DNA of 64,000 nt from Lingula anatina (taxonomy: Eukaryota; Animalia; Brachiopoda), in the NCBI GenBank assembly GCA_051362555.1, contig CM120640.1, forward strand, positions 25,716,225 through 25,780,224. The letters run 5' to 3'. A program made the translations under genes and the position numbers. Shown piece after piece: positions 11,386-40,645 of this stretch. Each line of letters begins with the position of its first letter. Position 1 is the first letter of the stretch. The notes under the pieces are model-generated. The model saw only the letters and a program-made list of their open reading frames with translations. It was not told the origin of the DNA and did no database searches.

Positions 11386-11501
11386 AGATACAATACGAGT
11401 CGCCGAGCTGTACGTGAAATATTACGAGTGTATTGGCGAGCCGCAGGCGAGACAATACACGAGTAATTTTCACGTACAGCTCGGCGACGAGTGTTGTATC
11501 T
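11386..11501. mobile_element. Palindromic MITE core upstream of the GIY-YIG-like ORF
   Basis: AGATACAATACGAGTCGCCGAGCTGTACGTGAAA...TTTCACGTACAGCTCGGCGACGAGTGTTGTATCT forms a near-perfect hairpin. Confidence 0.65.
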
Positions 11502-14044
11502 GGCTTAAACCACGGCCTCTGATTGGCTACTACACTAGTAGTGCAACAGACCGGGGAACGCACTCGTACATGACGTGCTTGTATGTCGAATACAGCACGG
11601 TCGAGTCTTTTGTTCTACGCGCTAGCCGTGGTTTAAGGAAAATAACAAGAACGGCTGTACAGAATACATTATTTCATTGTCCAGAAAATCTCTTTTCAAA
11701 TGTATTCACTCATTCCCAATATATAGGACCGTTTACAACAACAGAGAAGTGAAAAAGGAAGCTAAAGATATATTCGCAAATTCTACTTTTTCTGTATCTC
11801 TGGTGACAGAAAGTGATAAATGAGTTTTGTGTTAATCATTTTAAATTTTAAAAATTCATGCCTTGCTTGTATAGAAAATTTTCGTATTTAGTAACGAGTA
11901 TCGTTAGTAACGAGTTTTAAAAATAACAACCCTTTTGGATATTATTCGCACGTTATTACTACTAACAAAATTTAAAGTGCGCTGAAGGGATGGTACGAGA
12001 TATAAGTTCATTTTACTGGCATAGTTCGTCCTCAACCTCGAGTATTCTTTTCACAATGCCTGGTAACTAAGATTTTGCAAACTACTTTCTGTGAGAACGC
12101 AGTTATGCTGCGTTTCGTGTAAAACATTTGACTGTGCCCTGTCACCATATATCGTCTTGCTAAAAGTGGATGTAACTGAACTGAGGATTGTATTAATGGT
12201 TAAAATATTGCAAAAACATCAAACACAAAAACGACCTACGCTATAAAAGATGTTACGAAGTTTTTTTTTTTAATTTTCAATAACCCAGAGACACCGCGAA
12301 AGTAGCCTCAATTTGTTTATTCATAAACATTCTAGACGTTTTCTGAGACTTCAGACATCTTACTCGCTTCCTGACAAGTTGCAGATTTTCTAGATTTTCT
12401 ACTTAGTAAAAAAGACTACATCGATTGGAGAATGTGAGATGGTGCTGCGAGCGACAGTAACGAAAGTTTGAATTTAAGTTCATTTATTTTTATTTTTTCG
12501 TGGTAGAACAGATTAATCTAGTAATTATTATTTTTACTTTTGAAGTTGCTACACTGATGTTAGTTAAGTTCCACTTGGACAAAATTCTTCCGGTCGCTAT
12601 ATCTTAATAAAATGAAAAAAAGAAAAAGAAAGAAAAAACGGTAAATGGACCTGTATATTGAGAATGAGTGATTACATGAATGACCATTTACCTGTTAAAA
12701 CGTCTTTCTGCATGTAATTACTTCAAATAGTCACTATTACCTAATGTTCTCTCTGTTGCTATTTTAATATGATTCCAAAAAGAATTTATAACATACGACC
12801 CATAGAAAACCTATCAGTCTGTTTGACAAAGTGCACGCAGGTGGGGAACCACTTGAATGAACAGATTAAACTTTACAAATATCATCAACGTCGTATGGTT
12901 GAAAGGGAGGGTAGCAGCGCAAGCAGAGGTTGCATGGGACAGACCAAAGTGGGGGGAGATCTGAGTCTCGCCCAAGCCCTTTGCTCAATGAGAATCAAAT
13001 ATAACTGGCAAAAAGTTAATACAGTAAAGTAAATACAGAGAGAACATGGGGAATGGGTGGAGCAAAGTGGTCTTTTTTGATAACCTGCACACCCTTTTGA
13101 TGCAAAGGGAGGAGGGATGTTATTTAAAAACAAGGCAGCAAAGCTGTCAAATGTACAGACAAAAAGCAAAAGAAAAGAAGAAAAATATGCTTCGTATAAG
13201 CTGTGTAATATCATATAGGTTATTTCATCATTTTGGCTTTCTACTTTTTTACTTCTCACCCCAACCCCTGAACCCGTTAAAAGCTAAAAGTATACTTTTT
13301 TATTTTGGTTATTAGAGACTCAGTCTTCTGATAAAATGTACAATGTCCTCTTCGTTGTATGCTTTTTGTTAATCTTTTTTAAAATAAAAGACCATTTGGG
13401 TAATTGTAGGAGATGTAGGATATCAAAACGTGACTTTTTTTATTCTATATCCAACTAATTAAAGAAATTGAAAGAAGGAAAGAGAAATTGTAGTTTACCC
13501 TGCCATTTCAAAGGAGGGGGTCATTTCCTGGAAAAGATGACCTTTTACCATGAAACCCCCGTGTTCGACCCCCTCTTTCCGGCTACAGACCTGTTTATTA
13601 GGTAATTAAACAACACAAAAGATCACAGGAGCTGAGGGAGGTTACTCCCTACCTCCCCCCCCCCCCTCCACACACACACACACACACACGCGCGCGCGCG
13701 AAAGTTTTTTTTAACCATGCCAGTTCTGAACTGTGAAAAGGGGAACTATGGGTCGCTGCATGCCATCTTCTTTCAAGCAAATATAAGAAATGGTTAAAAT
13801 ATCTAGGCAATTGTAAAAAGTAACTAAAACATTTTAATTTAAAAATCACACCAGGCATATCATCTTTTCGTTATCCTTTCTCCTTGCAAAATCAAAGCAA
13901 CCAAAAAAATGGACAACTCCACATAAACGTTTATAGCAAAAATGTATTACCACTTTATCTTTATTGTCATCATCTGTGAAACAAGATATGAAATGAAAGT
14001 TTTTTCAAAGTGCAGTGTGGATCAGTGTATATTGTAGATAAGTG

Positions 14045-14322
14045 TGTGACGAAGCTATTGGCTTGTCTTCGTCATGTTACGCGAGGTAGCAAATACAACT
14101 CAGATATTATCTTTCTTATCATTTATTGAACTACTGTCCAGTTATTACCCGCGCCGCTTCCTTCATTTCTATTCCTACCTCATGCAATCTGTAGCGGCCT
14201 TCTCCCTGTTTACACTAAGCGCAGTTGTATAAATACCATAAGAGCATGTCAATCAACTTACGTTACTCTACTAAACACTCCCCGCTCTTATTCGCTGCAT
14301 GCTGTCAATTACTAACGTTACA
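14045..14322 (-). repeat. 3' LTR (278 bp)
   Basis: Direct repeat of 18479-18757; on the minus strand it is preceded by purine-rich GGGAGATAA (weak PPT). Confidence 0.92.
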
Positions 14323-17300
14323 TTATCTCCCGGGGACGATATGCCTGTCCCTAGGCATATTTAAAATTAAAATATACATTAATGAAAAATAAAATTTCTT
14401 AAACACTGCATTTGTCTTTTATCATAAATTCATGCAAAACAAAACTAAGTACATAAATATTCTATAATAAACTTACGATAAGATAGAAATTCATTTGACA
14501 TGAAACCCCAAATATAACTTAAAGGAAGATAGATTGATAAATTTTTATGAAAATATTATTTTTCGTGGATGTGCATTTACATGTTGTAATGTGCGGCCCA
14601 AGAGTACAGATACTTTTTATTTGTTTTCTCCGAGCGGATGTTTAAATCTGTTACTCTCTTATTATGGCTCTGACACATTTTTCTACAGTTTCTCTCTTTT
14701 TCTTGGTTGTCATTTTAGATATAGTAGGAATTCACTACGTGAGACAATAGGGTTGGCCACCCCCAGTCGAATATAAACAACATTCACCACACAACGTTGC
14801 GACCAGCGCATCGTCGATGACGAAGTACCTGTTCATCTTCATATTTATCCACACGGTAGCGTTCTCTTTTGATGGCTATAAGAGAAACAATCGTTTTATA
14901 TCAAACCCAATCCACGATTGAACAAAAACGTACCGAAAAATAATAAAGTAAGAATCTTCCTTAATGCATATCATCAGTTTCACGTCATCATCTTTATAAA
15001 AGTTAGGTACACTGTTCCTATACCAATACCTGTATAGTTAAATATCAATAACTAATAACTATAAGACCGACAGGCTGAATAAAGATATACTTCTCATAAG
15101 TCACGTACTTAATATTCAATACACAATATTTAACATTTTCTTATAACCACATGCAATAACATTTGACGCAAAGTTAACTCGTAAAATTTAAAGTTCATAT
15201 CCACTCAAATGAAAAATTCCATTTGGTATAGTCCGTTATATCCTCCATTTTTGAATTTTTAGCACGAAAGTTCAGTTATCATATAATGTCAAATCCGTCC
15301 TTCTAGACAGTACATAGCGATTGTCATCTGCCACTCATTGTATATGGATAAACGTCTTATTCGCGCACGTTGGCATACATGTAGATAAATGTTCACAGTT
15401 TCCTGTATATCCACGAATGTCCATGTCCAGCGTTTACGAATATATCCAAAATGAATGAAGCAGAAATGCATGTCAAGAAAAACTTAACTACGTATATTAT
15501 AACAATCATCATCAAACTTGAATACAGTCACATTTAACAGGCAAGATTTTAACTTGACATAGTATTAATCATCCAAAATATTATGATAACAATAAAACAT
15601 ATATGGAACCATGCTAATAATACGATAATTTTTCCAACAATAATACTTATGCTAATAATGAAAATAATAATAACGCAATCTGGCGTCCCAGATGCTAGTA
15701 TTTATATGACGTCATTCGCACACTTTTATACCTCAACTCCACATATTCAGTTATCCATAACCACATTGACATCCGTCACATCTTAATCATTTTATTCATC
15801 ACAATATATCAAATAATATCCAAATATGGCCATTTATCCTTGCAACATTTATTCTCATTAAATAATTTGTTCCACTCGATCTTTTGATTGCCAATATAAC
15901 CACATTATCAACTGACAAGATCATTTTAAGAAGATCGTTGAAATGCCAGTGATTAGGACTTTAATTAAGGCAATTTATCGAGAAACTATTCTCCAATTTT
16001 ATTCTTCGCAACTCAAAAACATAATTTTATTGAAGGGACTTCCAATAACGTAGATTAATCATAATCTTAATATTTGCTTGTCACCTTCAAAGGTGCATGC
16101 GCACTATCGGCGATGTTTGACATTGCAAGGGGGTAGTGGGCGAAACAGAAGGGGTATTCTTATGAAAAGAATAATGATTCATTATCTGAAATTACGCAGA
16201 CTGTAAGGCCAGAGCCCTAAACCGAAAAAGGTGCAATAATAATAAGTATTGCCTGAAATTAAAGTGAATGCCATTTAAGCGTTATATCCTGTAAAAGAAA
16301 TTAAAAACTCATTATGATGTATATTAAAATTACAAGGATAGACGAAAAACGAAAAATTAATTCGCTGCCTGGCTAACCTGAAAAAAAAACCTATTTTATC
16401 AATATTGATTAGTGCAACATTTTTGTTCAAGTCAACAACAAAATATTTCCAAATGCATTTCTCCGTCTTGTCACGAATTTTTCAACAGTGAAGTGAGATA
16501 TCTCAGCTGTTGGCATCTCTTCAAACATTCCGCAACCTGTAAAATTCTTAAGGTTCAATAGATGCATAAAATGTAAACGGAAATGAATTTACTTAATAAA
16601 CATAAGACGTATCAAAAGATGGATAATGTTTACATTTATCTAAATTAGCAGGTATCGGAAAATATAAGACATACAAAATATATTCACCAAACAAATTTTA
16701 CGTGTTGTTTTATAACAAGTCTACAACCAATTCAAATTATTTCTTTAATCAATACTCACGCTTACTTACGTGAATCTTTTACGGATTCCGAGGGAAAATG
16801 AGGGACAAATATATCGCCATTGAACTCCTAATAGTATTGTCCTAGAAAAGACTTAGCGTACATGTTTAAAAAACAAACGTTAATGGCATTGAAATTTAAG
16901 AGCATCTTTTAATATTTTCTATAAAAAAGTTTAATGACATCACTTTAAAATAGTCTTTTTATAAATATCTTAATTCTATCCAATTAGAATTTAACTTTGT
17001 CACGTCTGCTACTCACATCTTGCTGTCTGTTTTAAACAGGTGTGTTCTATCTCATTGACACACGACTTAATATATTTTCTTCTTTTCCTTTACTCTTATG
17101 TTATTCCTTTTAATGTCGCTTCGTTTAGTTTTTAATTGGATCCCTAATATTCTAACCAAAAGGGAATCCATTTACACTAAATAAGATACTGTGCTTCCAA
17201 CTTTTTATCTGACGCGACCTCGTAAGGCTTCTACTTTAAATAATTCATCAGTGGTCTGGGACAAATTCGCTTGTCCTGCAGTCTCATTTTCTCGTTTTTC

Positions 17301-18463
17301 TTCATTTTTCTTTTTTTTTTTTTTCACTCTCTTTGTTTATGGGCAAAGTTAGCAACGAAGCCCTGGAGTTATTTTGGAGGAACTTTCCTTGTCAAACATT
17401 CAACACAAGAACGAACATAATGACATCTGTAAATGACCTTATCTAAAAAATACTTCGTGTGCGTAATAGTAACTACGTGTTTTGAATAACCTTATGACCG
17501 ATTGCGTTGTCGTGTAAACTAGACAAAACTTTGTACTCTAACTTGTCTGAAAAACAAGTTGCAAAGAACCTCCTGGGTGGGGTGATTTTCTGCCATCAAT
17601 TATCACGTTATCTCCTATCTCTAACAACAAGAAGCCAAGCGCCTTTGCAACTAAGTAGAAGTTCGTCTAATGTCAAGTATGTGATAATTGACGCAAAATT
17701 CTTATCTTTACGTTGGACTTTTTAAAACAATTCCTCTTTAAAACAAATGCCTCGCAATCTTGACATTTTGGCCACGTCATATTTTTGTCACCTTTCTCTA
17801 AATGTTAAAAGCATTCCAGACCTTTAAATTCGTAGCCACTCTGTTTTAAATTAAAGTAAAGTACTTGTGCCGAGATAGTGTCTAACATATGTATTCTGTT
17901 CAAACATGCATCATTAAAAAACTATGCAGGGTTTTATGTTTTTCTAAGTCTTATTCTTCAACGTTTCCCTCATGGTAAGGGCGGCGGCTAATCGCGTCTA
18001 CATTCGCGAGGTGTTTACCTTTACTCTGCTTAATTGAAATCTGTTAGGGGATAAATTCAATAACCAATAATTCATTACTTCTAGAAATTAGAATACATTC
18101 AAATAGGCATGGAATTCTGGCACTACCTTACACTTAATCAACGCGAAACTACATGTTTATGACCTCTTCTCGCGCAATGAAACTATTCAGATAATGCTAA
18201 GTTTGCATTCCTCAGCCTTCGTGAAATTATGTTTACCTCACTAAGGCAATATTTGAAATTGTGGCTGGCTACCATAAAGTCATCGAAATATCGCAAAAAA
18301 CATTTTCTAAAATAATCGTTCAAAGCAATTGTCTTACCTTCCATTTTATGTTTGCCCAATTCCAATCTCTCATCTAGATACTTTGTGTTCGCCTGCGTAT
18401 TCTCGTCCGGTGATCGTTCTCTCTCTTTCCGACAAGACTCATGATGTCAAATATTTATATTTT

Positions 18464-18476
18464 GCATCCTCCACCA
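18464..18476 (-). promoter_or_regulatory. Primer binding site complementary to tRNA-Ala 3' end
   Basis: Plus strand GCATCCTCCACCA equals the 3' end of metazoan tRNA-Ala(AGC) including CCA, and lies 2 nt from the LTR. Confidence 0.8.
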
Positions 18477-18478
18477 TT

Positions 18479-18757
18479 TGTGACGAAGCTATTGGCTTGT
18501 CTTCGTCATGTTACGCGAGGTAGCAAAATACAACTCAGATATTATCTTTCTTATCATTTATTGAACTACTGTCCAGTTATTACCCGCGCCGCTTCCTTCA
18601 TTTCTATTCCTACCTCATGCAATCTGTAGCGGCCTTCTCCCTGTTTACACTAAGCGCAGTTGTATAAATACCATAAGAGCATGTCAATCAACTTACGTTA
18701 CTCTACTAAACACTCCCCGCTCTTATTCGCTGCATGCTGTCAATTACTAACGTTACA
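18479..18757 (-). repeat. 5' LTR (279 bp)
   Basis: Direct repeat of 14045-14322, adjacent to the PBS. Confidence 0.92.
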
Positions 18758-20318: not shown

Positions 20319-23300
20319 GAGAGCAAAGTAACGCAGCACCACAGCTTTGTATCCAAAAACCAAAATTCAACTCATTACCTGGACATCGGCTAGTTTTATG
20401 GAAGAAATTGGAGTGACAGAAATAGTGACGAGATTGTAAAAGTTTAAGTGAGAGGCGAAAGAGGATGATTTCTACTAATGATTAAACGAGCATACATGCG
20501 AGTCCATTTAAATTTATTTGCAAGTCTCGCTTTTTTTAGCGATCTGTACACGACCACTTTTTTTACAAAAAAAAAAAAAAAAAAAAGAAAGAAAGAAAAT
20601 TATAGAATATTTTTTATTCAACTATTATGTACAATTTTGAATATTTACAGTTGATTTAAAAAGGACTAATAATCAGTAATGAACTACGTAAACGCAATGA
20701 ATTAATACATAGCAGTATTATCAAAAGTTCTAAGATTTTCCATCGTCTTCATCTAGCGTCGGAACGCACACAGTCCGATAATGCAGGTCTTGTGGTCGGA
20801 AACTGGTACCAGATGCACTCGGGTCGTGGGGAAAAACCCGTCTAAACCCTTCGTGGGGAATGGCGGGAAAGTGCCCACCCCGGATAATTCGGTCCTTATA
20901 ACATGACGAAATCGGTTTCTATTGGCACGGCGCTGCGTACAGTTCAAGAATCGTCCCGACTAACTATTCTCTATATATACTATACACGAGGTGAAGCATA
21001 AAAACTTATTAAAGTAATTCTTACAGAAAAAGGCACTGAAGCCAATAAAAAACTAACAAGAGACATAACAAACAGAATCATTTTGACCATCTTGGAGAAT
21101 TAAAACCATAAATAAAGTTAATCATTTTACAACTGCAAGCATCTTTCAAAACTTGATTATAGTTCTCTTTATGATAAAATGCAAACAGATTCAAGTAATA
21201 TGATTATAACTCGGGAATATCAATGATTTCAACTAAACTTTGATATATAATTCGACTTAAAATACCAGGTTTCTAAAATGCAACTTTGCACTGAAATCGC
21301 AACTACCTGCATGATACAAGTACAGAATAAAGCAAGCTTGCTTCAAAATATTTCGGATCTCACATTACACTGTATGACCGCCCATGTAAATTTCAATCTG
21401 AATTTTTTTGATCCGGAGAAAAGGTGCATATATGATGAAGTGGATGTATTTGTCAAGTATAACACTTGAGAAAATCTGAATATTAGTAATGTGATCTCTA
21501 TCTTGAGAGATGACAGCATCTCTCAAGAAGAGCAGACTGTACAAAAAATATAATGAAATATTTTCTCACTCGTAAAATATTTCATTACAGATTTTGCACA
21601 ATCTATCAATGTAAAATCTCTTCATGAAAAAGCGTTTACATGAAGTCAGATTTTACAAAGATGTGAGGGTTTGTTAGTAAGGTTAGTGTGCAGGTTAAGA
21701 CCTTTTCAAATGCCATACTGACAAACAACTCCACATCATCAAAAGCACAAATTTGAAAAATGACCATCTCAGATTGAAACAAAACACAGACGACCACAAG
21801 TGGTGGGAATGTTTTTGTGAGCAAAAAACTATCTGCATTCAGAATGTGGATAAAGCTACTCTATATTCAAATTTATTAATATAATAATTATAGCAACTGT
21901 AGAGGTAGACTTTTCCTACAGAAGCACACATCTTATTCAATTGATCTTGTATGGAATGAAGAATTATCTTGAACCTCAGTTTTCTCTTCTGTTATTGAAA
22001 TAAAATGGTTCACTGCATAAGGCATAAAATACAAATGAAATTTGATGCAATTTCACCTTGACATGTTTGTGACCCATGAACCCCAAATATTCTCAGCATC
22101 CAAAAGACTGATACATTATTAGACTGTATTCCCACTACATTCAGTACTGTATATTGCCTTCATTACCATTCCACATTCTTTATATTTGTTTGCAGAACAA
22201 GCCGTGTCCTTCAACACCAAAACTCGTGGGACGTCCGAGCATCCATGAAAGTGTCCACAGGGCTCCTTGCTAACGCTGTACAGTGTTCAACATCTTGGAC
22301 ATTTGGTCTTGGGTCGACGTTATCTGACATCATGCAGGCATAATTATTGGAAAACTCCCAATTCGTAGCCTACAAATGAAATCCAACTTTTACTCAAAAG
22401 TATGAAAAGCTATATCGAAAGTTTGCAGTAACTGCAACAAAGAAAGTATATCACTGGTATTTACACACCGTTAACATTAATGAAAAGCTTGGTTCTTAAA
22501 ATGATCAGATCGTTATTTCCAAATGTACAGTGAAATATGCTTCCTTTATTGAAATATATATATTAACTTTTTAGAGTAAGTAGACAGCAGTCTTCCAAAA
22601 ATAAATTATTTCAAACATTTGACAAAAAAGTAAGAAAAGATGTTGCTATATTGAATATTGTAATGTTAGCCTACATGTTAAATTGTCGACTGTCTGTGCT
22701 ACTTCTAATTCTACTGTTTGTTTACATAGGATATAGTTTTTGATCACTGTCAATAATAAGAAATGCTATAATACACCAATAATAATACTTAAAAAATTCA
22801 GAACCACTTTTCTTAAGTTGTTGATCCCCAATAACTTACAAAGTTATCTGTATAAAGATTCCTCAATCCTGAAGAAGTGTTTCATCTGGAGGTTTGGTAG
22901 TTGCAATCTTCATTTTTAGAATCCACCACTTTTGGTAGCCTGCAAATTTAAATTATTACTTCAAAATGTAATAAAAGTCAACCATTTGTATATGAAATGT
23001 GTTTTTAAAGTTTCAGCAGTTTGATGGGAAATAAATATAAAAAGTACTTTTGTCACAAACTTGGAAAAAACATTCAAGCGAAATATTTTGACATGCCACT
23101 GGCGACCTTCAGACTTAATGTCACAATGGGGTATTGCACAAATTAGTTTTAACGAAGGAAAAGGAACACTAACAGCATTTAAACGACTCTACTCAAAGAC
23201 AAGTTTAAGTAAAGCCTGAACAATCTAGATCCAGCGGGAGGAGTGTACTAGTATTCCATCAAGTGTTTAATTCGTGAAGGATTTATATGGGAGAGACAAA

Positions 23301-23622
23301 GAGAAAGTTGAACGTTAGAGTTAAAGAACACGGGAAGGAATAAGAAAGGGTACCCGAAGAGGGAAAAATACACTACAGCCCAAGGTAGCCTTCTGCTACA
23401 ACGAACCATCACAAAAAAACATTGATTGGGAGAGTGCCAAGATTCTACAAAAAGAAAGTGACTGGAGAACAAGAGGCGTAAAGGGAGGCATATAAACCAG
23501 GAAAATGCCTAACAATCTGAACAATATAGAGAGATGGAAATAAATAATCACTTCTACGGTGGCCTTTTATTACCACAACCACAGCACTGGAGGTGGGGGT
23601 GGTAGCTGCTAGTATACAATTT

Positions 23623-24271
23623 CTGGACCAGTGACAACGTCCCGGAGTCACATTGGTGGTGGGTGTTGGGGGCGGTAGCTCCAAGTAATCTGGACCAGTA
23701 ACCACGCCCTGGAGTCACATTGGTGGTAGTGGTGGGTGGTGGGGGCGGTAGCTCCAAGTAATCTGGACCACTGACCACGCCTCGGAGTCACATTGTTGGT
23801 GGTGGGTGGTGGGGGCGGTAGCTCCAAGTAATCTGGACCAGTGACCACGCCCCGGAATCACATTGGTGGCGGTGGGTGGTGGGGGCCGTAGCTCCAAGTA
23901 ATCTGGACCAGTGACCACGCCCCGGAGTCACATTGGTGGCGGTGGGTGGTGGGGGCGGTAGCTCCAAGTAATCTGGACCAGTGACCACGCCCCGGAATCA
24001 CATTGGTGGCGGTGGGTGGTGGGGGCCGTAGCTCCAAGTAATCTGGACCAGTGACCACGCCCCGGAGTCACATTGGTGGCGGTGGGTGTTGGGGGCGGTA
24101 GCTCCAAGTAATCTGGACCAGTGACCACACCCCGGAGTCACATTGGTGGTGGTGGGTGGTGGGGGCGGTAGCTCCAAGTAATCTGGACCAGTGACCACAC
24201 CTCGGAGTCACATTGGTGGTGGTGGGTGGTGGGGGCGGTAGCTCCAAGTAATCTGGACCAGTGACAACGTC
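23623..24271. repeat. 70-bp tandem repeat, ~9 copies, G-rich on the + strand
   Basis: CTGGACCAGTGACCACGCCCCGGAGTCACATTGGTGGCGGTGGGTGGTGGGGGCGGTAGCTCCAAGTAAT starting at 23623, 23690, 23763, 23833 ... 24253. Confidence 0.95.
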
Positions 24272-25726
24272 CTGCAGAATATTGAGACTGTTGAGGATCT
24301 GAAAGTTGACGAATGGCATGTCAAAATATTTTGTATGAATGATAAGGTTTTTCCACATCTGTGACAAATTAAAAGAGCTTTTTACCTGTGAAAAATGAGC
24401 ACTGAATTTGCTAGAGTAAATTGTAAATAGAAAACAAATGCCTGCACCGAGTGACAGGTCCCAAACATTCTTAAAACAATTGTCTAAGACCTTGCACAAA
24501 ATGCTCAGTTTGTTGGAGTTGCACTGATAAAAGATTTGTATTATCTATACAATGAATGACAATCTAGTTCATTTACCCTTATCTTGTCCCATAACTTACC
24601 TTGAATGCTCTCTAATCACAACTACTGAAGGGCTCTTGAAACACTATATGATATAGCTGACATGGCTTTCTCCATTTTAGCCTTGTTAACCTTGTTAAAA
24701 TGGACCGTCATCAGGACAGGCGCTCGCCAATGCTATCTGCCTCAACTACAAAATAAAAAATTATAAGTCAAAAGTTTCCCTCTTTACTTCTCCCACCCAA
24801 ATCCAATCTACTAACCATAAATATCTTAATCCTAGGAGTGGGTCATGGGTAAAAGACATTGCCTTCTGAATGTGAGCTATCAAATTAATGTGGCTAACGG
24901 TTTTTAGTTTTTCAAGGTATGAAAAATCACTTAAGTGTTTTGTTTTCCCCCAAAAACATGAGTGATATGTACCTTTTAAGGCTTGATAGGTTTCCATCTC
25001 TGTGAAACGCCATATGCTTCTGATGCTCCCCCATGCAGCCCCCTAACATACAGACCATGGCAGGACTCAACCATGCACCAAGGATTGAATGTGACCCTCT
25101 TCTTGCACCTCTTTCAAAAAAGCGGCTTTATCAGGAATTGCCCTAATTGAGTTCTGTAAATAGAAAGGAAAATTTGATTAGTTTTCAAAAATTGTATATC
25201 AAAAGCAGTCTGCAGCCAGAAAAATTGTTGGAATCGGTAGATTTCCAGAATGTGTCAATTTGGTGACATGGCTGTTAGATTTTTTCTATAAGTATGAAGA
25301 AGAGCTTTTGATTTATTTTAAATGTAACTGTTACATCATGATTCGAGAAAAATGTCAAGGTCTTGTTAATACAAATATTAATGCAATCCAGTCTAGTCCT
25401 ATTGAACTTTGTATTCGAACCAGTGAATCAAGATTCAGACATCTATATCTAGTTTTTAGGAAAGAAGGTGGACTGAATGGCCAGTAGGGTGAAAAGTTTA
25501 TGGCACAGACTGCTGCTGAAAAATTAATTTTAGTGTATTGTTCTCGCCAGTAACACGGGTTACCTTGCAGGTTTTTCCGCCTCAGTGAAACACCATATGC
25601 TTCAGACGCTTCTCCAATGCAGCCTCTTCAACAGACCGTGGCAGGACTCACTGGCACCAAGGATTGAGGGATGTATCGGAAGTGTGCAGGTGGCCCTCTT
25701 CTCCTTGCAGTTGCCATGAAACGTTG

Positions 25727-26390
25727 GACAGGACTCGCTGGACGCTTCCTAGTGCAGCCACCTCGTAGACAGACCATGGCAGGACTCGCTGGACGCTTCC
25801 CCAGTGCAGCCACCTCGTAGACGGACCATGGCAGGACTCGCTGGACGCTTCCCCAGTGCAGCCACCTCGTAGACGGACCATGGCAGGACTCACTGGACGC
25901 TTCCCAAGTGCAGCCACCTCGCAGATAGACCATGGCACGACTCGCCGGACACTTCCTTAATGCAGCCACCTCGTAGACAGGCCATGACAGGACTCGCTGG
26001 ACGCTTCCCCAGTGCAGCCACATCAAAGAGACAGACCATGGCAGGACTCGCTGGCACCAAGGAATGGTCAAAGTAGCTTAAGTGTAGATGTGGGACGTCT
26101 CCTTGCAGTTGTGTTCTGTCAACAGAAAGAAAAATTAATTAATGACTTTTCATACTATGTCAGCACTCTGCAGTCAGGCTTACCTTTAAGTGGTTTCCAT
26201 CTCATTGAAACACCATATGACAAGACTCGCTGGACGCTTCCCCAGTGCAGCCACCTTGTAGACAGACCATGGCAGGACTAGCTGGACGCTTCCCCTGTGC
26301 CGCCACCTCGTAGACAGACCATGGCAGGACTCGCTGGACGCTTCCCCTGTGCAGCCACCTCGTAGAGAGACCATGGCAGGACTCGCTGGC
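25727..26390. repeat. 52-bp tandem repeat in two blocks (~6 + ~3 copies)
   Basis: Unit GGCAGGACTCGCTGGACGCTTCCCCAGTGCAGCCACCTCGTAGACGGACCAT at 25778, 25830, 25882...; second block 26221-26385. Confidence 0.9.
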
Positions 26391-26450
26391 TCCAAGGGAT
26401 GGTCGAAGTAGCTTAAGTGTAGATGTGGGGTGTCTCCTTGCAGTTGTGTC

Positions 26451-27755
26451 CTGTAAACAGAAATAAAAACGAGGTTAGATTTCTTTCATTTCTCAAACCC
26501 CCCTTCCAAAAAGAAAAAAAGATTACATACCTTAAAGAGTGTAGTCGAAGTCCCACAGGTGGCGCCCATCATCTTCTATGTCCTGTAAACAGAAATAAAA
26601 ACGAGATTAGATTTCTTTCACTTCTCAAACTCCCCTTCCAAAAAGAAAAAAAGATTACATACCTTAAGGAGTGTAGTCGAAGTCCCACAGGTGGCACCCA
26701 TCATCTTCTATGTCCTGTAAACAGAAATAAAAACGAGATTAGATTTCTTTCACTTCTCAAACTCCCCTTCCAAAAAGAAAAAAAGATTACATACCTTAAG
26801 GAGTGTAGTCGAAGTCCCACAGGTGGCGCCCATCATCTTCTATGTCCTGTAAACAAAAAATAAAAACGAGATTAAATTTCTTTCATTTCTCAAACCCCCC
26901 TTCCAAAAAGAAAAAAGATTACATACCTTAAGGAGTGTAGTCGAAGTCCCACAGGTGGCGCCCATCATCTTCTATGTCCTGTAAACAGAAATAAAAACGA
27001 GATTAGATTTCTTTCACTTCTCAAACTCCCCTTCCAAAAAGAAAAAAAGATTACATACCTTAAGGAGTGTAGTCGAAGTCCCACAGGTGGCGCCCATCAT
27101 CTTCTATGTCCTGTAAACAGAAATAAAAACGAGATTAGATTTCTTTCATTTCTCAAACTCCCCTTCCAAAAAGAAAAAAAGATTACATACCTTAAGGAGT
27201 GTAGTCGAAGTCCCACAGGTGGCGCCCATCATCTTCTATGTCCTGTAAACAGAAATAAAAACGAGATTAGATTTCTTTCATTTCTCAAACCCCCCTTCCA
27301 AAAAGAAAAAAGATTACATACCTTAAGGAGTGTAGTCGAAGTCCCACAGGTGGCGCCCATCATCTTCTATGTCCTGTAAACAGAAATAAAAACGAGATTA
27401 GATTTCTTTCACTTCTCAAACTCCCCTTCCAAAAAGAAAAAAAGGTTACATACCTTAAGGAGTGTAGTCGAAGTCCCACAGGTGGCGCCCATCATCTTCT
27501 ATGTCCTGTAAACAGAAATAAAAACGAGATTAGATTTCTTTCATTTCTCAAACTCCCCTTCCAAAAAGAAAAAAGATTACATACCTTAAGGAGTGTAGTC
27601 GAAGTCCCACAGGTGGCGCCAATCATTTTCTATGTCCTGTAAACAGAAATAAAAACGAGATTAGATTTCTTTCATTTCTCAAACCCCCCTTCCAAAAAGA
27701 AAAAAGATTACATACCTTAAGGAGTGTAGTCGAAGTCCCACAGGTGGCGCCCACC
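26451..27755 (-). repeat. 131-132-bp tandem repeat x10; each unit is a 79-80-nt GT-AG intron plus a 52-nt exon
   Basis: Donor AAG|GTATGT at 27716, 27585, 27454, 27322, 27191, 27059, 26927, 26795, 26663, 26531; branch-like TCTAATC and acceptor TTTCTGTTTACAG| in essentially every unit. Confidence 0.9.
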
Positions 27756-28109
27756 AGTTTGCAGTCTGCTTCCTGGACCTGTAATAAAAAGAAACCTGGA
27801 AAGCATGGGAATATGCAATGACACTACGACTCCAGCCCACGACAGCAAAAAGGTGAAGTATCCTGCGAAGATGACCGAGCGACGATTCCTCGTGGGGAGA
27901 AGCGAAGATTTTAGCTGGCCAGCTAAGAGAAACGCCGAATCCACCGTCTAGACGTCTGCGTGTGCAGGGAACAATATGTCGAAGAGCGATGCGTTGACGT
28001 AGGATGAGTAGAAGATTCGGAGAAATGGGAGTCGACTCCCGTGTCCTTTGTGCTTGATACAGGGCGCAGCACATGGCATCCGTCCTGTTGCTCTAGATCT
28101 GTCCGCTGT

Positions 28110-28195
28110 TGAGTGAAGGCACTTTTAAAATTTTGCGCTTTTATACCTTTGTTGACGTATAGTCACATGATGGCGTTCTTGTTGTCACCAATGGT
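28110..28195 (-). promoter_or_regulatory. Pol II core promoter (TATA box + Inr, upstream E-box and CCAAT)
   Basis: Minus strand: ATTGG...TCATGTGAC...GGTATAAAAG (TATAAAA 28145-28139), then TCACTC with A at 28114, 31 nt downstream, which is canonical spacing. Confidence 0.6.
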
Positions 28196-28704
28196 CAACT
28201 TGTTCAAAGGGGATGGCCTTTGATAGTGATGCGCAAAGTTGGTAATAATATCTTATCAACATATACATTTTCTTTTATATTTTATATTTTGATTATTCTG
28301 CCTGTCAGTTTGTTTATAATAAGAGTAAAAAGTTCTAAGCAATGTCTGTGAAATGTGCAGGCAAATTTGATGAAAATTTCTGAGCAACATACCTTCTCCC
28401 TAAAATTTTTATAGGTACGATGTCCGTTAAGCTGGTAGCTGTGAACTTCTCGCAGGCTACTTTAGTGTGCGTGTATTTGAACACTGATCCAAAATGTGGA
28501 TAATGTAATTTGGCGTAGGGTGACTGCATTTTTGAGGCAGCCTGAGGGAGTATGGTTGTTCTGATTGTAGTGAATTGTAGAGAGACAATTGGAAGTACAC
28601 TGGACTTAGCATGTTCAGTCACCCAAGTACTCTGAAACACATTTTGTAATCAGCTGACTTGTTATTCTGAAAAATGAAAAAACAAATTATATTGATTTAC
28701 AAAA

Positions 28705-29024
28705 CTGGAAGATAGAAGCAGTGGATCATATTACTTATGCCAGGCAGAAGAAACGACTGAATGTATATTTTTATATTCAAAACGTCTACTGATTTAGGTA
28801 ATAATTAATAGCCTGGAAGATAGCAGCAGTGGATCATATTACTAATGCAAGGCAGAAGAAACGAGTGAATGTATATTTTTATATTCAAAACGTCTACTGA
28901 TTTAGGTAATAATTAATAGCCTGGAAGATAGCAGCAGTGGATCATATTACTAATGCAAGGCAGAAGAAACGAGTGAATGTATATGTCTATATTCAAAACG
29001 TCTACTGATTTAGGTAATAATTAA
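28705..29024. repeat. 108-bp tandem repeat x3
   Basis: CTGGAAGATAGCAGCAGTGGATCATATTAC... at 28705, 28813, 28921. Confidence 0.9.
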
Positions 29025-32000
29025 CAACTGACGTCTCCCTTCATGGCGTCGGGTTATCAGTACTCCCTCACCAGTAACATGAGTTATGAGTTGAGCAGAA
29101 ACAGAAAAAGATTTTTTATAAAGATAATGCAAGTATATGTGTAGGCCCATTTATCTTTTTTTATATTACTAAACGTAAGAATTGTTTGTCCAAGTGAAAC
29201 TTTACTTACATCAGCCTAGCAACTAAATCTGACGTCTCCGAAAATAACTAGAATTTTTTGAATAACGCAATAATGCGGCCACCTTCGAGGTGTCGCCCGG
29301 TTTTTAAAAATTGAAAAAAGAAACTTTTCGGGGCGTCTTTTGTCGCGGGTCATTATTTTCAGTTGTTTGATGTTTTTTTGTAATATTTTAGCCATTGATA
29401 GAATCTATAATTCAGTTACATCCACGATTAGCTAGACAAAATGGTGACAGGGAAAAGTCAAATTTTTTAAACGGCAAAAACTGCATTCTCTTAGAAAGCA
29501 ATTAGCAAACATTCATTACTGTGAAAAATTCAACCGAAGTTGAACACAAAATGTGTCAAAAATAAACGTGCATGTCGTAATACCTTTTTAAAGCAGTCTA
29601 ATTTTTGTTAGTATTAAAAACGTGTAAATATTATCCACATAGGATATTTTTAAAGCCTTCGATATTTAAAATATTTAAACTTCCCATACTTTGAGGCATG
29701 CATGAGTCGGAAAATGTTTGCATAATTACATAAAAAACTAGAATTATCTCTTTATGTGACCACAGTTTACTCATGTGCCTTACATCATTCCCTTAAACCC
29801 TTTCCCAATATCGATTTCAGATATTTTTGACACATTTTGTCTTCATCTGAATCACGTGAACGTTATCAAGTGTCATAAGGCGTACATTACGAAAATATTT
29901 AGGTCTTGGAACGTGATTTGATGACTTTTTTTAATGCATATATATACAATTATAAATTTATAATTAAGTTATTTAATATCAAATTATAAGTTCTGACCGA
30001 GTTTTAAAATTTATTTTAGGAGGGGTAAAAAAACCCAACCCCATCTAATATATATTGGATACATCCGTAGGCTTATGTCCTTAGAACTAGGCGTACAAAA
30101 TGTGTCTTCTAGCTAAAGTTATTATTATGGTGTATGTGTAATTTAAAAAAAACTACGTAAGAATGACAATAGGTCATGTGTTTCGAATGCACCCCCCACT
30201 CTCCGATCAGACATTACTTTTGTATAATTCACAGTCCATCTTCGTTGTAGTTTGTGACTTAACGTCATTTCTTAGTGAAGCGGTGTTGTCCTCAATTTAC
30301 CTTAAATGTCCAAATTACTAAGAAGAAACCACTTGCAAGAATTATAAGGCTTTTTATACTGCTAGGTCTATAGACGTGATACACACGATATTTTGCAACC
30401 CCACAAAATCTGTTTCTTAAAATTTTGGTTTCACCATAAAGCTTAGCACTATCATTCTTTTTTGCTTTATTTATATATTCTCAGTACATAAATAACCATT
30501 GTCTGTTGCCCAATTTTGCACAAAAATAAGATAATCCCCAAAACCTCATTAATTGTGTTTCCTCCATCCCAAAAAATATTAAAAATTTCTCCTCATAATT
30601 TAGTAGTGCACTGGCATCTACACAGTACATAAATGTATCATTATAATAACATCTTGTTCTTACTGATAACATAATTAGCTTAATTCCATAACAATTCTAA
30701 AATGTTAATAACAATGAAAATTCAAAGTAGATGGCAAGATTCTTATTGTGCTGATAAAGATAAAATATGTAAATTCAATACTGATTAGGTACTGTATACT
30801 GGCTCATTGAAAAAAAGGGAACCGTTTCACAAAAAAATTAAGCTTAGACTGCTAAATCTGGATAGCCAACTATACAAAGTCAACTTTGCGATATTGTCTT
30901 ACAACTACAATTTTTTAAGAATGATTGGTCCACAGTTGATGAGTAGAATATACATAAATGGGCTACTGACACCATTGCAAGTAAAAGACTTGCCAAGACA
31001 ATCAAAATGTAAATCAAAGGAAAGTGAAAAGAAAGTAAAAAGACTGGAAAAAATGAAGCAAAATTGATAACTTGGTTAATGAGCGAACAATACTCTAGTT
31101 TTGATTAAATCAGAACTTTTCTTGCACCTTTTCTTGGGGAATAGGGGATTGGTGTAGTGAAAGCCCAACCTTAACCTTTGGATGCTATTCTCATTAAACA
31201 TATGCATAAAAGACAAAATTTAGACCACAAATAGATTCATGCAATCTACCAACCTTTTTTACAGTGAGTCATTGCAACTTATTAGTTATTTCTGGCCTAG
31301 GCTATCTGTAAGATTCTTACAACTGTGAAGTGCAACTTAGCCAGCTAAGTCTTTATAGGCTCAGATTTTAGACTACAAACCAGCTTCAAACATTTAGTAA
31401 AGCAAGTGCAAGGAATAGTTAGTTTGAAGGCTCTGCCTCCCCATAGGGTGAGAACAAACACAGTCACACTGTATGATACATTACAGAAAACATTGGTTAA
31501 AAATATTCTCTGGAATTTTACATTTTCACTAGTATAGAATCAATTTGATTTCTAAAACTGACTTATTATAAAAATACTCCTGTCAATTTAAAACTTTTTC
31601 ATAAAGCATATCTGAAGTACACTGATAAAATGTTATTAAAAATATTAAAATTTGATATTCACAGATAAAATAGGCTCAAGTCAAAATTATTAAGACAATT
31701 ATTGAAGCATTATTCAAACCCCAATTTTGTTTATTTTCATACAATTAGTGATTCACAAGTTCTTTAACAGAGTTGTACCTAATCTGACTACATGATATCT
31801 ATCAAAATCTCTCTAAAATCAAGTGACAAAAAATGCCCACAGTTTCAAGCACCATAAAATATGGCTTAAGTAAGTAATATCCTCAATTGTTTCATAATAA
31901 ACGTCATGTCACTTGAATGTACCATTCTCCAGAAAAAAAGATGAACTTGCAAGGTTTGATAAGTCTGCGTTTACAGGTAGATGTCATAGTTTAATATACA

Positions 32001-32181
32001 TGAGGCAGCTTTATATCGTGGTCAACAATATTATATTATATCAGTTTCTCTAGCCTCCATGTCTTATTCGTCATAATATTTTGATTTTCAAATTCAGGGT
32101 CCCCTAGTAAAAGATCTTGCATTTCCTCTTGATCACAGAAGAATCTGAGTTGAGAATACAGTTGAGAATACAGAGTTAAAA

Positions 32182-35100
32182 TTAGGCCTCTCCTCTCCAC
32201 TCGGGGTCCTCTTGCAACTGAACCTGGCTGACATCCATGGTTACATCTTGAAAAATAATATATTCCAAAAAAGTTTAGATGGTGCAGTAATAATAATAAT
32301 AATAATAATTAAAATCAATAAATCTTGGACGCATTACTTGTCGTACGTCTGAATAACATGACAGACAAGAAGAAAATAGTTGCTCTTGAAAATGGACTTT
32401 AAGTAATGAAAATGCAAGATGACAGCTAGTAGATAGTACATGTGCATGCAATTTATTTGAAATTCTGACTTTTCAGTCCTAATGATTTAGATTATTTATA
32501 GCCAATAATCTGAGAAAATAAAATATTCAACAGAGAAATTGATTGCAGTAAATCCTGCTCGTACCTGACTGCTTAATATTCACTGCAGCAAACCTCTCTA
32601 CGACATCGTCGAGCTGATCAGTAGGGTCATCATAATCACATCCTGTGTTCGCTTTTTTCTCGAGGCAGTACTTAAGGAAACTACACCAAAGAGAAGTTGA
32701 AAATAAAGAAAGAATTGCCTACTTTCTTTTGTCTTTCTGTATGGACTTTCATTCACAATAAAAGAAAGAATTGCCTAGTAGACACTATTTTGTCTGTCAA
32801 TTTGGAGTTTAATTTACATGTTTTTTAACTTTCCTTTTTTTTCTATTTTTTTTTCATTTAACAGTCTGTCTGAACTAAAACATGATAGCTTTCTCTTTTT
32901 AATCTTTCTATCCTCTGTTTTTTTTTTTGTCAGTCTGTCTGAACAAACATTAAAAATTTAATTTATGAACTTTATTAAATCCTTAACATTTCTTTTTTTG
33001 TTGGTTTGTCTGTCTGTCTGAACAAAAGTTCTTAGAAACAATGAGATTAAATAAAGATTAAATAAAGGAAAAAAAATTTGAACCTAACATGGCTGATTTG
33101 TGTTTGGTTTGAAAAAGTCTTATAATTTGATTGAACTTTTTTTGCTTACTGATCAAATAAATTAAAATAATTCACTTCACCTGTTCCATTGTTCATCTTG
33201 CGAAAGAAGAAACGGATTCCCTACAACAATCAATAGGGCCTTTGCTCTTGTGATCGACACATTAAACCTCTGAAAAAAAATTAATCCCACATGTAACTGT
33301 ATGTGCGGGTGAACACTGAAGACAGTATAGTCTGAGACTAACTGTTCATATCTCTTCTGTGAATTCCGCATCACATGGCATAGTCTCCGCAGTGCCATAG
33401 TGGAAAGAAATGGTGATGAAAATAGTATGGACTCTAGCTGTTTAAATAACCTTACATTTCAAAATATGTGTGTGCACATCCACATGTACAAAGTCTTATG
33501 AATTATGTGTTCACGCATGTACACATGCCACAGCACAATCATGGTAATGACACTATCTTTTCAATGGGCAAAAATTATCAAACTTTCAAATGTATACCTT
33601 TATAAACACATAAAGTATATAGTATTAGTGGTACTCTTACTGCACAGATTAGAACTATAGATTAGCTTACTTTTTTATTCTGTTGTGACCATCCAATAGG
33701 AATTGGGTAGGAGTATCAAAATTTTAAAAATAAATGGCCTAAAAAATACCGCATCTGTAAAATTCACGATTTCCCCCCCACTGAAAAATATCAAGTTATT
33801 ACCATATGCTGAGGTGGCACTAGAAATTTTTTCTAAAGCCAAATTACTACTTTTTCATCACTTTTTTCTCCAAAATGGTTTAAATTTGACTAAAATAAGT
33901 CAAATCAACCCTATTTTGTTTAGCCAATTGAAGTCAGTTTTAGCATTTGGCTTAAATGGGCAGTGTTAACTCTACCCCAGTTTATGTGTCCACATGCATA
34001 AGTGTACAAATGACTGACCTTTGGGTTCTTTAAAAAGCCCAGCTTGAACTCTGCGTCCAGAGCCAGGTAATCGGGGTTACTACTCACGGTGGACACCATG
34101 ATGACCCGTCTCTCCTGACCCTGAAATTCCTCCACACTGCCCACCTTTATGTCCCGAAAGTTTTTCTTGAACAGCAGTTGCCTCAGTTTTTGAACCTGTG
34201 GAGAGAATAAAAAGGGATGTCTGTGCATTTACAGGCCCGTAACCAGCATTTTCAAAAGGGGGGTTCTTTTTCTGAAAAAGTGGACCTTTTTCCATAAAAA
34301 CTTCATGTACCTAGATCAAATTTTACCCACAGTGGACCTTTTCCCAGCAAAAGTGGCAGTTCTTTCCCAGCAAAAGTGGCAGTTCTTTAAAACCCCCGAA
34401 CCCCCCCTGGCTACGCGCCTGATATAATACTCATCCGTTACATTCAGCAATTACTTTATCTTTATCTTATTTTACTATATCTAGTAGTTAGCCATAACTC
34501 TGAACAGGCTGCATATTGTTAGTACATTACATTATAACCAAGCTCAGGTGGATTAGTAATTGAATTTGCCATGTGAGATGGGAGTGAGCAAATTCACCAC
34601 AATTTTAATTTTAATTTTTTAAATTTTTCTTTATACTTTATCACATGTACACTTCTGTAGTTAAAGTAGGACTTTTCATAAGCCTAACAGTACCATATCT
34701 ATAACATACTATTAACTCAGATGTATTGTGGCTGTACTTTAATTTAAGGTAAATGGAATGTTGGACCTTTAAAGAATGTTGACTACTGGCTCTTTAGAGC
34801 TATGCCACATTCTTAGAATCTTTTGCCCTAACTCAGCAAAAAGGCCCAGTTAATAATTGTAAACAAATTTGCAAAGTTTTACTAGGCAGCTTCAATTAAT
34901 TGGCATTTGGCGTGAAGCCCGATTTGATATTGCAAACTGTTGTTAGTAACTTGAAAAGGGAGAGGGACTGGGGAGGGGTTGCCTGTATTCATCATGGAAT
35001 AAGTTCTGTCATATTTCCCTCACTTGTTTTCTGTAGGGGGAAATAATTCCAGTTTCATTCTGCAAGACTCGGATGCCTCTGGCCTCCAGTAGCTTCTCCA

Positions 35101-35478
35101 CATATCCCAACACAATAGTTGCTTCTTCTGGATTGAAGAATGATGGACTCCTTTCCTCCCTCATGTCCTCCCCAACCACTCCATGGAATACAAAGGGACA
35201 CCCCATTTTTGGTAAACCTTCCCAGTTGCAGAGGGACTCCCTGGCAAGTCGGTCAGCACAGGCTTCTAGCTCGTTGTGGTAGAACTGTTCGTTTGGAAGC
35301 TTGAGGATAGCAGGATGTGATCTGTAGTTTTTGAGGAGTTTTGTAAGGAGAAATGGGTTGTAATGGCCTTGACGTTGGTACAGTACATCTTGATCGTCGT
35401 CATCTGAGCCAGGACTCGAACCACCCCTCTTCTTGTACACATCACAGTAGGTCATGTATCTTTCTAGGAGTGAGAGTC
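32182..35478 (-). CDS. MOV10: MOV10-like SF1B RNA helicase, 3' five exons only (5' exons not found; possible partial duplicate or pseudogene)
   Basis: Exons 35478-35024, 34195-34019, 33269-33181, 32680-32565, 32246-32182, phase-consistent. Motifs [73 protein letters not shown], C-terminal EDPEWR. Confidence 0.85.
34232..34421. mobile_element. Intronic MITE (CAGGCCCGTAACCAG...CTGGCTACGCGCCTG)
   Basis: Imperfect terminal inverted repeats, non-coding. Confidence 0.6.
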
Positions 35479-36219
35479 CTGTAAGACATTAAAATGATGA
35501 GACATTTCATATACATGTATAAATGTATAAATGAAGTTATTCTTTATCAAAGAAACTAAATAACTATGAGGTTCAAAAGGTTTTAATTTCACCAATATAT
35601 GTACAAAAGAGATGAAAGAGACATTTTGTCAATGCTTAAGTACAAAATCTCTACTACCACATGTAAAAGTATTTCAGTGTTTGCAATTTTACCAGAGCTT
35701 ATAGAACTACCAAAAAAAACTGATCCTTGTCAAAACCTAGTCCTAGTCAAAAGAAAGACTTTCTTTTGTCAAATTTAAAATTATTGAAGGAATAATTCTG
35801 GGCACAGCCATAGCAGTAAAAATGTTTCATTAATTGCATTACCTTTTATTTTACTTAAATCTCAGAAGCAGAAATCACTGGTCAATAAAAAGCTTTTAGA
35901 ATAAGTCCTACATGTACATGTATATGATTTTACCAGACTCTCAAACACCTTTGTAAATATTATAGTTAATCATAGTACTTTTGTCCACAATTTTCAACTT
36001 CACTTTTCTTTTAGTCATAGTCTTATTTCATTTTTATTTAAGCCCGAGGTAGTAATGTAACTTCCCCTTTTAATGCATTTCATAACACATACACTCACAC
36101 ACACTGGCAGATTAAAACTTTACTATTACTCATATTATCATTTTTATTATAATGGCTGTTGGAGGCATATTATTATAATTAAATATATTAAAAACTATTA
36201 TAATTATAATTATATATAT

Positions 36220-39200: not shown

Positions 39201-40645
39201 CCTGTATACAAGAGATAACTGTATTGAATTGGTTTTCTTCCATTTTCAACACCTTTTTTTCATATAACAAAGTAATCAATTTACTGTCATTTTTAAATGA
39301 ACAACTGAGAAAATTGTTGACATAGGAAAAATATCAATAGAACAATTTTAAATGTCCAGTTTGCTCCATTCTGAGATTCTGAACATGGTGAATGATTGAA
39401 TCTGACAAACTGTAAAGATATGAGTTTATTATTATTTCCATTTTTTGACACTTTATTACACAATTACAGGTTTACCATCTTTTTTATATAATCAACTAAC
39501 AATATTGTTAAGACGCAGAAAATGTCAAAAGAACACCTTTACATATCTAATTAGTTCACAGATGAGATTGTTAACATGCCTAAGAATTAAATCACAGGAA
39601 AAAACACTTATATACAAAAAAGGCATAACTTCACCAGAACTGAACCAATGGAGCTTATTTTCGAACTCCATCTGTATTTCAGTAAGACTGATCACCCCTG
39701 TAAATTTCAAGACAATTGGCCAATTGATTTTCCTTGAAATGCGTTATCGGTATTGCATACATGCTAAAAAAAAGTGAAAAAACAGCATAACTTCCATAAA
39801 ATTGGTCCAATCACGCTGATTTTCAAACTTGACCTGTGTATTATGAATAGTCATCAGTTCTGTAAGTTTCAAGCCAAAAGGTAAAACGGTTTTTCACTTA
39901 TCGTGTTATCAGTGTTGCATATATGCTTAAAAAAATGAAAAAAGAGCATAACTTCCATAAAAATGGCCCGATCATGCTGATTTTCGAACTTGACCTGCGT
40001 ATTATGTATATTCATTAGTTCCATAAGTTTCAAGCCAAAAGGTAAAACGGCTTTTCACTTATCGTGTTATCGGTGTTGCATATATGCTGAAAAAAGTGAA
40101 AAAACAGCATAACTTCCATATAGATGGCCATATCATGCTGATTTTCGAACTTGACCTGCATATCATGAAAGCTCATCAGTTCTGTAAGTTTCAAGCCAAA
40201 AGGTAAAACGGTTTTTCACTTATCATGTTATCGGTGGTCAAAGTGCACGGCGACGACGACAGACGCAGGTGATGGCTATATGTACAGACACATCTGTGTC
40301 TGTACATAAAAAGTGAAAAAACAGCATATATTCCCTATAAGTGACCCGATCATGCTGATTTTCGAACTTGACCTGCGTATTATGAATATTTATCAGTTCT
40401 GTAAGATTCAAGCCCAAAGGTAAAATGGTTTTCCACTTATCGTGTTATCGGTGCTGCATATATGCTGAAAAAAGTGAAAAAAACGGCATAACTTCCCTAA
40501 AAATGACCCTGTAAGTTTCAAGCCAAAAGGTAAAATGGCTTTCCACTAACCATGTTGTCTGTGCTGCATATATGCTGAAAAAAGTGAAAAAACAGCATAA
40601 CTTCCCTAAAAATGACCCGACATATCTGTGTCTGTACATAAAAAG
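36220..40645. repeat. Two diverged copies of a composite Helentron/HINE-like repeat carrying ~161-bp satellite units
   Basis: 36225-36420 resembles 38667-38870 and downstream blocks repeat. Unit TTTCAAGCCAAAAGGTAAAA...GCATATATGCTGAAAAAAGTGAAAAAACAGCATAACTTCC recurs every 161 bp (39870, 40031, 40192). GAC microsatellite, hairpin TATGTACAGACAC-ATCT-GTGTCTGTACATA and A-run at ~40250-40312. Confidence 0.65.

Follow-up and report, generated by a model that had tools for sequence, protein, structure and literature searches.

A repeat-built transcript of Lingula anatina

A 64,000-nucleotide (64-kb) stretch of the brachiopod Lingula anatina genome (assembly GCA_051362555.1, contig CM120640.1, positions 25,716,225 to 25,780,224; hereafter the window, to which all coordinates refer) contains a minus-strand transcript of ~4 kb that is spliced, is assembled from duplicated exon modules, and keeps most of its ten tandem mini-introns while its other introns are removed. 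The transcript is likely non-coding and, judging from sequence similarities, is one of a family whose further copies lie elsewhere in the genome. The explanation that we consider the most plausible, and hold tentatively, is that this lineage-specific, multi-locus RNA stays nuclear through splicing factors predicted to load onto its unspliced mini-introns. A preliminary description made from the sequence alone proposed a spliced long non-coding RNA (lncRNA) of 15 or more exons; the RNA is real, spliced and probably non-coding, and serial exon duplication is evident, but the fully spliced 15-exon form is not what the reads contain.

The reads derive from three stranded poly(A) RNA runs of one study (X13, X14 and X15), on which the middle and 3′ junctions rest, and from the further RNA runs X16, X19 and X20. 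Reads placed on 21650–26735 number 653, 796, 574 and 78 in X13, X14, X15 and X20 respectively, with two of the ten array units taken into the analysis and none of the X20 reads lying over the 70-nt array. Strand orientation in X13 was set by a neighbouring minus-strand gene. On the 28-kb side, the 15 junctions listed of 40 come mostly from DNA contigs, and exon-1 junctions are not among them. Run X2 is a DNA run with assembled contigs, and X7 is a run with 12 million letters of contigs.

Transcription start and upstream region

The transcript is preceded by a TATAAAA box (28139..28145, minus strand) with an Inr-like TCACTC 31 nt downstream at 28114, as described previously. Minus-strand depth in X13 is ~0 at 29.5–30.0 kb, 1–2 at 28.3–29.2 kb, and 14.8 over exon 1 (27765–28049) versus 0 on the opposite strand; the interval that separates the locus from the upstream helicase gene likewise has ~0. 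A partial bin implies an onset of coverage at 28063–28099, which fits the predicted start near 28114 and not read-through, and the stranded poly(A) reads establish the minus-strand transcription that the preliminary description presumed. The transcript level in X13 is ~10–15 fragments per kb per million by arithmetic estimate. Exon 1 (27716..28114) runs unspliced into the first mini unit, a 63-nt variant: read ends with 0.99–1.0 agreement run through the acceptor at 27778, and the RefSeq models of both isoforms of the gene (named X1 and X2, not to be confused with the runs) likewise read through it. Exon-1 depth is 3.4 in X19 and 0 in X16, but the neighbouring gene is also low in X16 (4.6). 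Since X19 has many fixed differences from the window and X20 reads are mostly 90–95% alike to it, no claim of tissue or sex bias is made.

Plus-strand RNA is present in X13 at 28335..29189 (depths of 2.3, 9.6 and 2.3); X16 and X19 have none or close to none. It lies over a 108-bp array of three copies (28705–29024) that the preliminary description did not list, pointing to a bidirectional promoter. This divergent RNA, the signs of multiple copies (below), and the adjacent AAA_12 helicase gene, which we take to be of the MOV10 type, would suit a piRNA-type precursor, a multi-copy bidirectional Pol II RNA that is cut into short RNAs as are the pachytene clusters and Bombyx Fem. We regard this as quite improbable, however, as the window has no match at the gathering score to any of 4227 Rfam families and no hairpin beyond those of shuffled sequences, and the helicase neighbour may be there by chance.

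Splice junctions and 3′ ends

Five junctions, all with GT-AG ends, are found downstream of the mini-exon array (read counts for X13/X14/X15/X20): 25564>25153 (29/19/21/0), 24973>24745 (3/15/12/0), 24600>24298 (29/28/21/0), 23552>22939 (6/1/5/2) and 22840>22369 (16/10/3/0). The first exon after the array (26184..26450) is a duplicated module with 3.3 copies of a 52-nt repeat; it has a depth of 12.7–15.9 and is joined to a mini-exon in three reads of X14. The 68-nt intron behind it (26116..26183) has strong signals and is covered in X14 and X15 (depth at 26136 of 1/9/9/0 in the four runs), and no junction in the reads corresponds to 26184>26115 or to the last proposed intron near 22168>21989. 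In a second duplicated module (25564..26115) the 52-nt repeat is present in 6.2 copies alongside the 25720 segment, and a third, degenerate module (24973..25153) has a 2-nt insertion at 25125 in most reads (30/35, 20/20 and 24/26). The 146-nt exon at 24600..24745 is sometimes skipped, with four X15 reads joining 24973 to 24298.

The large exon containing the C-rich 70-nt array (23128..24298) is either spliced out at 23552 or continues to ~23128. Its acceptor was placed at 24271, exactly where the array begins; the reads of the 24600>24298 junction put the main acceptor 27 nt upstream, and 24271 has a four-read loose end in X15 as its only read support. Depth in this exon is 12–49 down to 23180, including 12–35 past 23552 to ~23180, and five molecule ends fall at 23128 in X13; much of the RNA is therefore continuous and unspliced beyond 23552 to ~23128. 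A 100-nt exon (22840..22939) and the last seen exon (21650..22369; depth of 12–20 at 22160–22329) follow. The proposed transcript end at 21870 is unsupported, as a depth of 1–9 is still present at 21650–21819 in X13–X15, and the run-on past 23552 together with coverage below 21870 indicates at least two 3′ forms. At 22193 four reads form a loose end that matches nothing in the window even when three mismatches are allowed. There is also a 1–4-fold plus-strand RNA signal beneath the 3′ exons (21990–23009) in X13 and X14.

Retention of the tandem mini-introns

The ten exon–intron units (26451..27778) each contain a 52-nt mini-exon and a 79–80-nt intron with a near-consensus AG/GTATGT donor, a CTAAT branch-like site, a pyrimidine tract and CAG. 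For the two units analysed, junctions between mini-exons number 5/16/10/8 in X13/X14/X15/X20 versus a depth of 119/155/69/17 at intron position 26619, corresponding to spliced shares of 3–4%, 7–9%, 10–13% and 25–32%; the mini-introns are thus mostly retained, and a main form of 15 or more exons is not confirmed. Assuming ten retained units, array coverage is 14.3-, 20.2- and 9.0-fold in X13, X14 and X15, compared to 12.7, 15.9 and 13.0 in the flanking exon; if the array were spliced it would be 36-, 51- and 23-fold. The 410- and 301-nt introns have depths of 0–1.7 in the same runs, and with stranded reads this means that neither pre-mRNA nor DNA explains the coverage of the array introns. In X13–X15, stranded poly(A) reads extend over all three repeat arrays of the transcript.

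An RNA that keeps the array has ten donors, together with nine branch-like sites accompanied by pyrimidine tracts. These rarely used signals would load U1, U2AF and PTB-type proteins many times over, and this loading may keep the RNA nuclear, in the way that pCharme is held by its retained intron. Further sites, of the hnRNPK type, would be contributed by the C-rich repeats. The minority of spliced forms would meet a stop codon within ~130 codons, ahead of many junctions, and would be expected to enter nonsense-mediated decay (NMD).

Several points weigh against this explanation. Nuclear hold and protein binding both stand as predictions. Reads of fully spliced tandem 52-nt exons could be under-aligned, the sampled animals may carry more than ten array units, and retention may just reflect that 68–80-nt introns between 52-nt exons are poor substrates. 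In RefSeq the gene is annotated as coding, with its first mini junction spliced. The repeat units fold no better than shuffled sequences (z of -0.6 to +1.4), and structure and sequence vary between copies as those of neutral repeats would. Mirtrons or structured repeats were also considered and were rejected on the same folding results.

Repeat arrays and exon homologies

Tandem Repeats Finder calls a 132-bp array of 9.9 copies at 26447–27753 (97% matches), a 70-nt C-rich array of 9.3 copies at 23622–24269 (93% matches; 38% C), and 52-nt arrays of 6.2 copies at 25729–26054 and 3.3 copies at 26217–26389. The three repeat modules reported previously are all real, but the 52-nt module is split across two exons. 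Members of the 132-bp array differ by 0–7 letters. When splice sites are scored with matrix values, the 24–28 kb bin has 13 strong acceptors on the minus strand versus one on the plus strand, whereas every other 4-kb bin has 0–4; approximately ten of the 13 are array copies. Recomputation bears out that the spliced units, of 52, 52 and 70 nt, each have a length of 3n+1 and that the mini-exon is closed by stops in every frame; that the three share one length class has a 1-in-9 chance.

Homology links the exon starts at 26450, 26115 and 25153 to one another and to the 25720 segment (each score is reached in 0 of 300 shuffles). The mini-exon matches the 25720 segment, and that modestly (33.5 versus a shuffle maximum of 32), and its comparison with the exon start at 26450 gives p of 0.14; the shared motifs taken previously as evidence of serial exon duplication are thus upheld among the longer exon starts and the 25720 segment, but tie the mini-exon to that segment only. 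An exact search for the mini-exon motif in viral and metagenome contigs returned no matches. The array probably originated through the recent amplification of one exon with its intron, following older duplications of the longer modules.

Coding potential

The longest open reading frame (ORF) is 131 aa in five of six splice models; in shuffled sequences the longest ORF reaches 81 at the median and 137 at the 95th percentile. It is located in exon 1 (27679..28074, minus strand) and begins 41 nt after the predicted start. A search of 1.84 billion representatives with this ORF has one match, the uncharacterized L. anatina gene LOC106172600, and none outside Lingula. The LOC106172600 models (XP_013408834.1 and XP_013408835.1), situated on a 1.67-Mb RefSeq scaffold, are annotated as proteins of 132–136 aa in which the first mini junction is spliced and the stop lies in the next mini-exon. 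The window transcript shares with them the exon-1 ORF and the first mini-exon junction: isoform X1 is identical over 96 aa. They differ in that the frame of the window allele is shifted thereafter and the window reads show a retained array. Three substitutions and two indels that keep the frame separate isoforms X1 and X2 in exon 1, a difference suggestive of a second exon-1 copy.

These models present the gene as one for a short peptide, in which case the spliced remainder would be a long 3′ untranslated region and retention or NMD would tune output. The position of the ORF close to the transcription start and the preservation of frame by both isoform indels are consistent with this, as is the 207-aa ORF that would result if every mini-exon were skipped. 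However, we think a peptide gene improbable. The reading frame is not preserved from one allele to the other and no relatives of the ORF were found in other species, so that the pattern is not that of a conserved protein-coding gene; there is no Pfam match, and the ESM recognition score of 1054 is low compared to the 2300 that 91 in 100 known-family proteins reach. A 43-aa ORF begins 5 nt upstream of it, and the all-skipped form is not identified among the junctions found. Indels of +2, -8, -5 and -1 segregate in the exons, and none of the best 12 of 31 indels would restore the frame by removing 1 nt from a 52- or 70-nt unit. The RefSeq protein family can be flagged as probably non-coding.

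Related loci and copy number

Of 107 candidates, three proteins match an open frame through the 52-nt module, with 46–48% identity. Each is an uncharacterized L. anatina model; they lie on scaffolds of 36, 346 and 687 kb and mix frames of the same DNA modules. The reads also contain forms that the window cannot account for, with 29 reads carrying an exon variant absent from it, and six reads joining the donor at 26184 to a mini-exon-like start, as would fit tandem copies or back-splicing.

In run X2 the region from 27480 to 36000, including the helicase gene, is represented by unusually deep contigs. Eight single contigs at 28.0–35.5 kb have depths of 722–2435, which is 6.5–22 times the median of 112 in 11 single contigs of other loci, although contig depth is not copy number, as the tool itself warns. 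Position 31383 is split at 48% in this run. Depth tracks GC content perfectly in seven flank contigs (rho of -1.0), from which the exon-1 contig deviates with 2004 at 43% GC. Amplification, assembly collapse or library bias could each account for the excess. The contigs of X7, which comes from the same sample as the run with the largest share of window words, contain 0.62 of those words, of which the arrays make up at most 0.25–0.385. Runs with small shares, X10 (0.10), X11 (0.06), X12 and X22, do not enter the results.

The main rival explanation, less probable than the one we favour although a serious one, is that an unstable amplifying repeat unit (a macrosatellite or segmental amplicon) gives rise to the RNA incidentally, without a selected function, and that the splice signals were copied together with the unit. 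The X2 depths, the share of words in X7, the unplaced exon variant and donor joining, and the substitutions and indels between RefSeq isoforms in exon 1 would all be expected of such a unit. The TATA/Inr start and the five exact canonical junctions in diverged, older modules suggest instead that processing has been maintained, and the caution on contig depth and its correlation with GC in the flank contigs weaken the case for an amplicon. GrpE, a gene within the window, also occurs in RefSeq on two scaffolds, of 33 and 335 kb, a pattern compatible with fragmentation as well as with duplication.

Inverted pairs and mobile elements

The preliminary description considered that the RNA might be internal to a large non-autonomous DNA transposon whose ends it could not locate. 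A degenerate inverted pair is present, with a left arm at 11798–12592 and a right arm at 29154..29765, in which 11916–12355 pairs with 29228–29654 (71% over 451 nt) and 12544–12592 with 29174–29224 (84%, a 51-nt piece). The pair brackets 17.7 kb without a recognised gene, a young long terminal repeat (LTR) element is nested inside, and related modules occur on three other scaffolds, all of which would be compatible with a transposon bounded at ~11.8–12.6 and 29.2–29.8 kb. Yet the arms are not the near-identical terminal inverted repeats of such an element, the left arm carries its own inverted ends, and no target duplication is evident by eye, the ends being too decayed to place. No transposase family is matched by the 13 ORFs scanned against Pfam. 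Depth in X2 does not step down at the right arm, the end for which contigs are listed (1626 at 29517 versus 1651–2455 at 30192–30437); as the 71% pair is not a copy-number boundary, the transposon is a weak reading and we consider it unlikely. The pair is more simply explained by two old, oppositely oriented insertions from the same repeat family.

A second inverted pair brackets the 70-nt exon (24281–24384 and 23038–23127) with a score of 82, compared to a shuffle maximum of 38 (0 of 1000) and a best unrelated tile of 56 among 1004 tiles. The acceptor at 24298 falls in the upstream arm and molecule ends pile up at the inner edge of the downstream arm. The 70-nt exon may thus be an exonised foldback segment; the C-rich array probably arrived with, or was framed by, this foldback-like segment, with an arm supplying the acceptor.

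The nested element (14045–18757) has LTRs of 278 and 279 bp that are 99.6% alike, with TG...CA ends and an AGTG target duplication; a primer-site-like TGGTGGAG adjoins one LTR and no long coding ORF is evident inside. These features identify it as a putative young, non-autonomous LTR element. Beside the left arm of the large pair is an intronless orphan ORF of 482 aa (9676–11121, minus strand) with one relative at 58%, and a 116-bp palindrome (11386–11501) is located upstream of it. The C-terminal part of its product presumably resembles a GIY-YIG nuclease motif. As a candidate mobiliser this ORF was rejected: it has no Pfam match, its Atlas matches are below 0.9 (the lead at 0.86), and the AlphaFold pLDDT of 33.5 makes the fold unusable.

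Comparison with known repeat RNAs

Repeat-scaffold lncRNAs, among them the tandem-repeat scaffold RNA roX, are known mainly from mammals and flies, and the candidate here is a real brachiopod transcript. Xist and Rsx are tandem-repeat scaffolds with a C-rich B repeat bound by hnRNPK (PMC6316617). The Lingula RNA resembles these RNAs as a Pol II transcript of several kb that lacks a conserved ORF and whose mature form combines distinct tandem modules, one of them C-rich. It differs in its length of ~4 kb and its copies elsewhere (the 52-nt module at three other loci and variant exons in reads), whereas Xist, Rsx and roX are single-copy master loci, and it has no Rfam counterpart.

Firre (FIRRE) has an exonic local repeat, RRD, in ~8–16 copies and nuclear retention through hnRNP (PMC4820808, PMC6316617). 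Both are spliced non-coding RNAs with a repeated exonic module. However, RRD lies in the spliced exons of one locus, whereas the Lingula units are tandem exon–intron pairs with mostly retained introns and the 52-nt module recurs at three further RefSeq loci; RRD confers nuclear retention, whereas the Lingula transcript is known from sequence and reads. The pCharme RNA has a retained intron that binds PTBP1 and MATR3 (PMC7773549). The selective retention of the Lingula array introns while others are removed is similar, but pCharme has a single retained intron in a single-copy muscle gene and identified protein partners, whereas there are ten 80-nt tandem introns here.

The design, in which exon–intron units are tandemly amplified and left unspliced while other introns are removed, is unusual. 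If the RNA is nuclear and functional, amplifying one intron would be a simple route to a multivalent RNA scaffold; should it instead be neutral, the locus still offers a clean natural experiment on the failure of ten short, near-consensus introns to be spliced. A bolder proposal, which we judge improbable, is that these are amplified (~20-fold), multi-locus architectural RNAs whose intact but unused tandem introns would offer splicing factors a multivalent platform and, with the C-rich hnRNPK-type repeats, would assemble a nuclear body or control a chromosome domain. Such a family would be an independently evolved spiralian counterpart of Xist, Rsx and Firre with a new route to making repeats.

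Titles and beginnings of abstracts yielded no paper on the locus, and none was found that names any of six locus and protein identifiers, in literature searches that did not extend to subscription papers and supplements. The main text of PMC13121700 has no occurrences of lncRNA, non-coding or tandem; its supplements may contain the gene under a different identifier.

Neighbouring genes and other features

The other genes around the locus are ordinary animal genes. The AAA_12 helicase gene is on the minus strand with its 3′ end ~2.2 kb upstream of the TATA box, and Dyp peroxidase and amine oxidase genes are also present. The GrpE exon (53.2–53.7 kb) is 100% identical to an L. anatina protein, with the next matches at 69% or less. 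Helicase introns at 33555–33590 and 34232–34423 contain short high-copy repeats that attract many reads from other loci in both RNA and DNA runs, and a ~160-bp dispersed repeat family, with several longer related segments, occupies 36900–47600 in and around the helicase and Dyp genes. Toward the left end of the window are a fragment of an RVT_1 reverse transcriptase (4195–4542, minus strand; E of 4e-10) and a 202-aa open frame (6530–7138, minus strand) without a Pfam match. The latter has a signal-like start, a dibasic RKRKRR site and cysteines after it, and we take it to resemble a secreted precursor.

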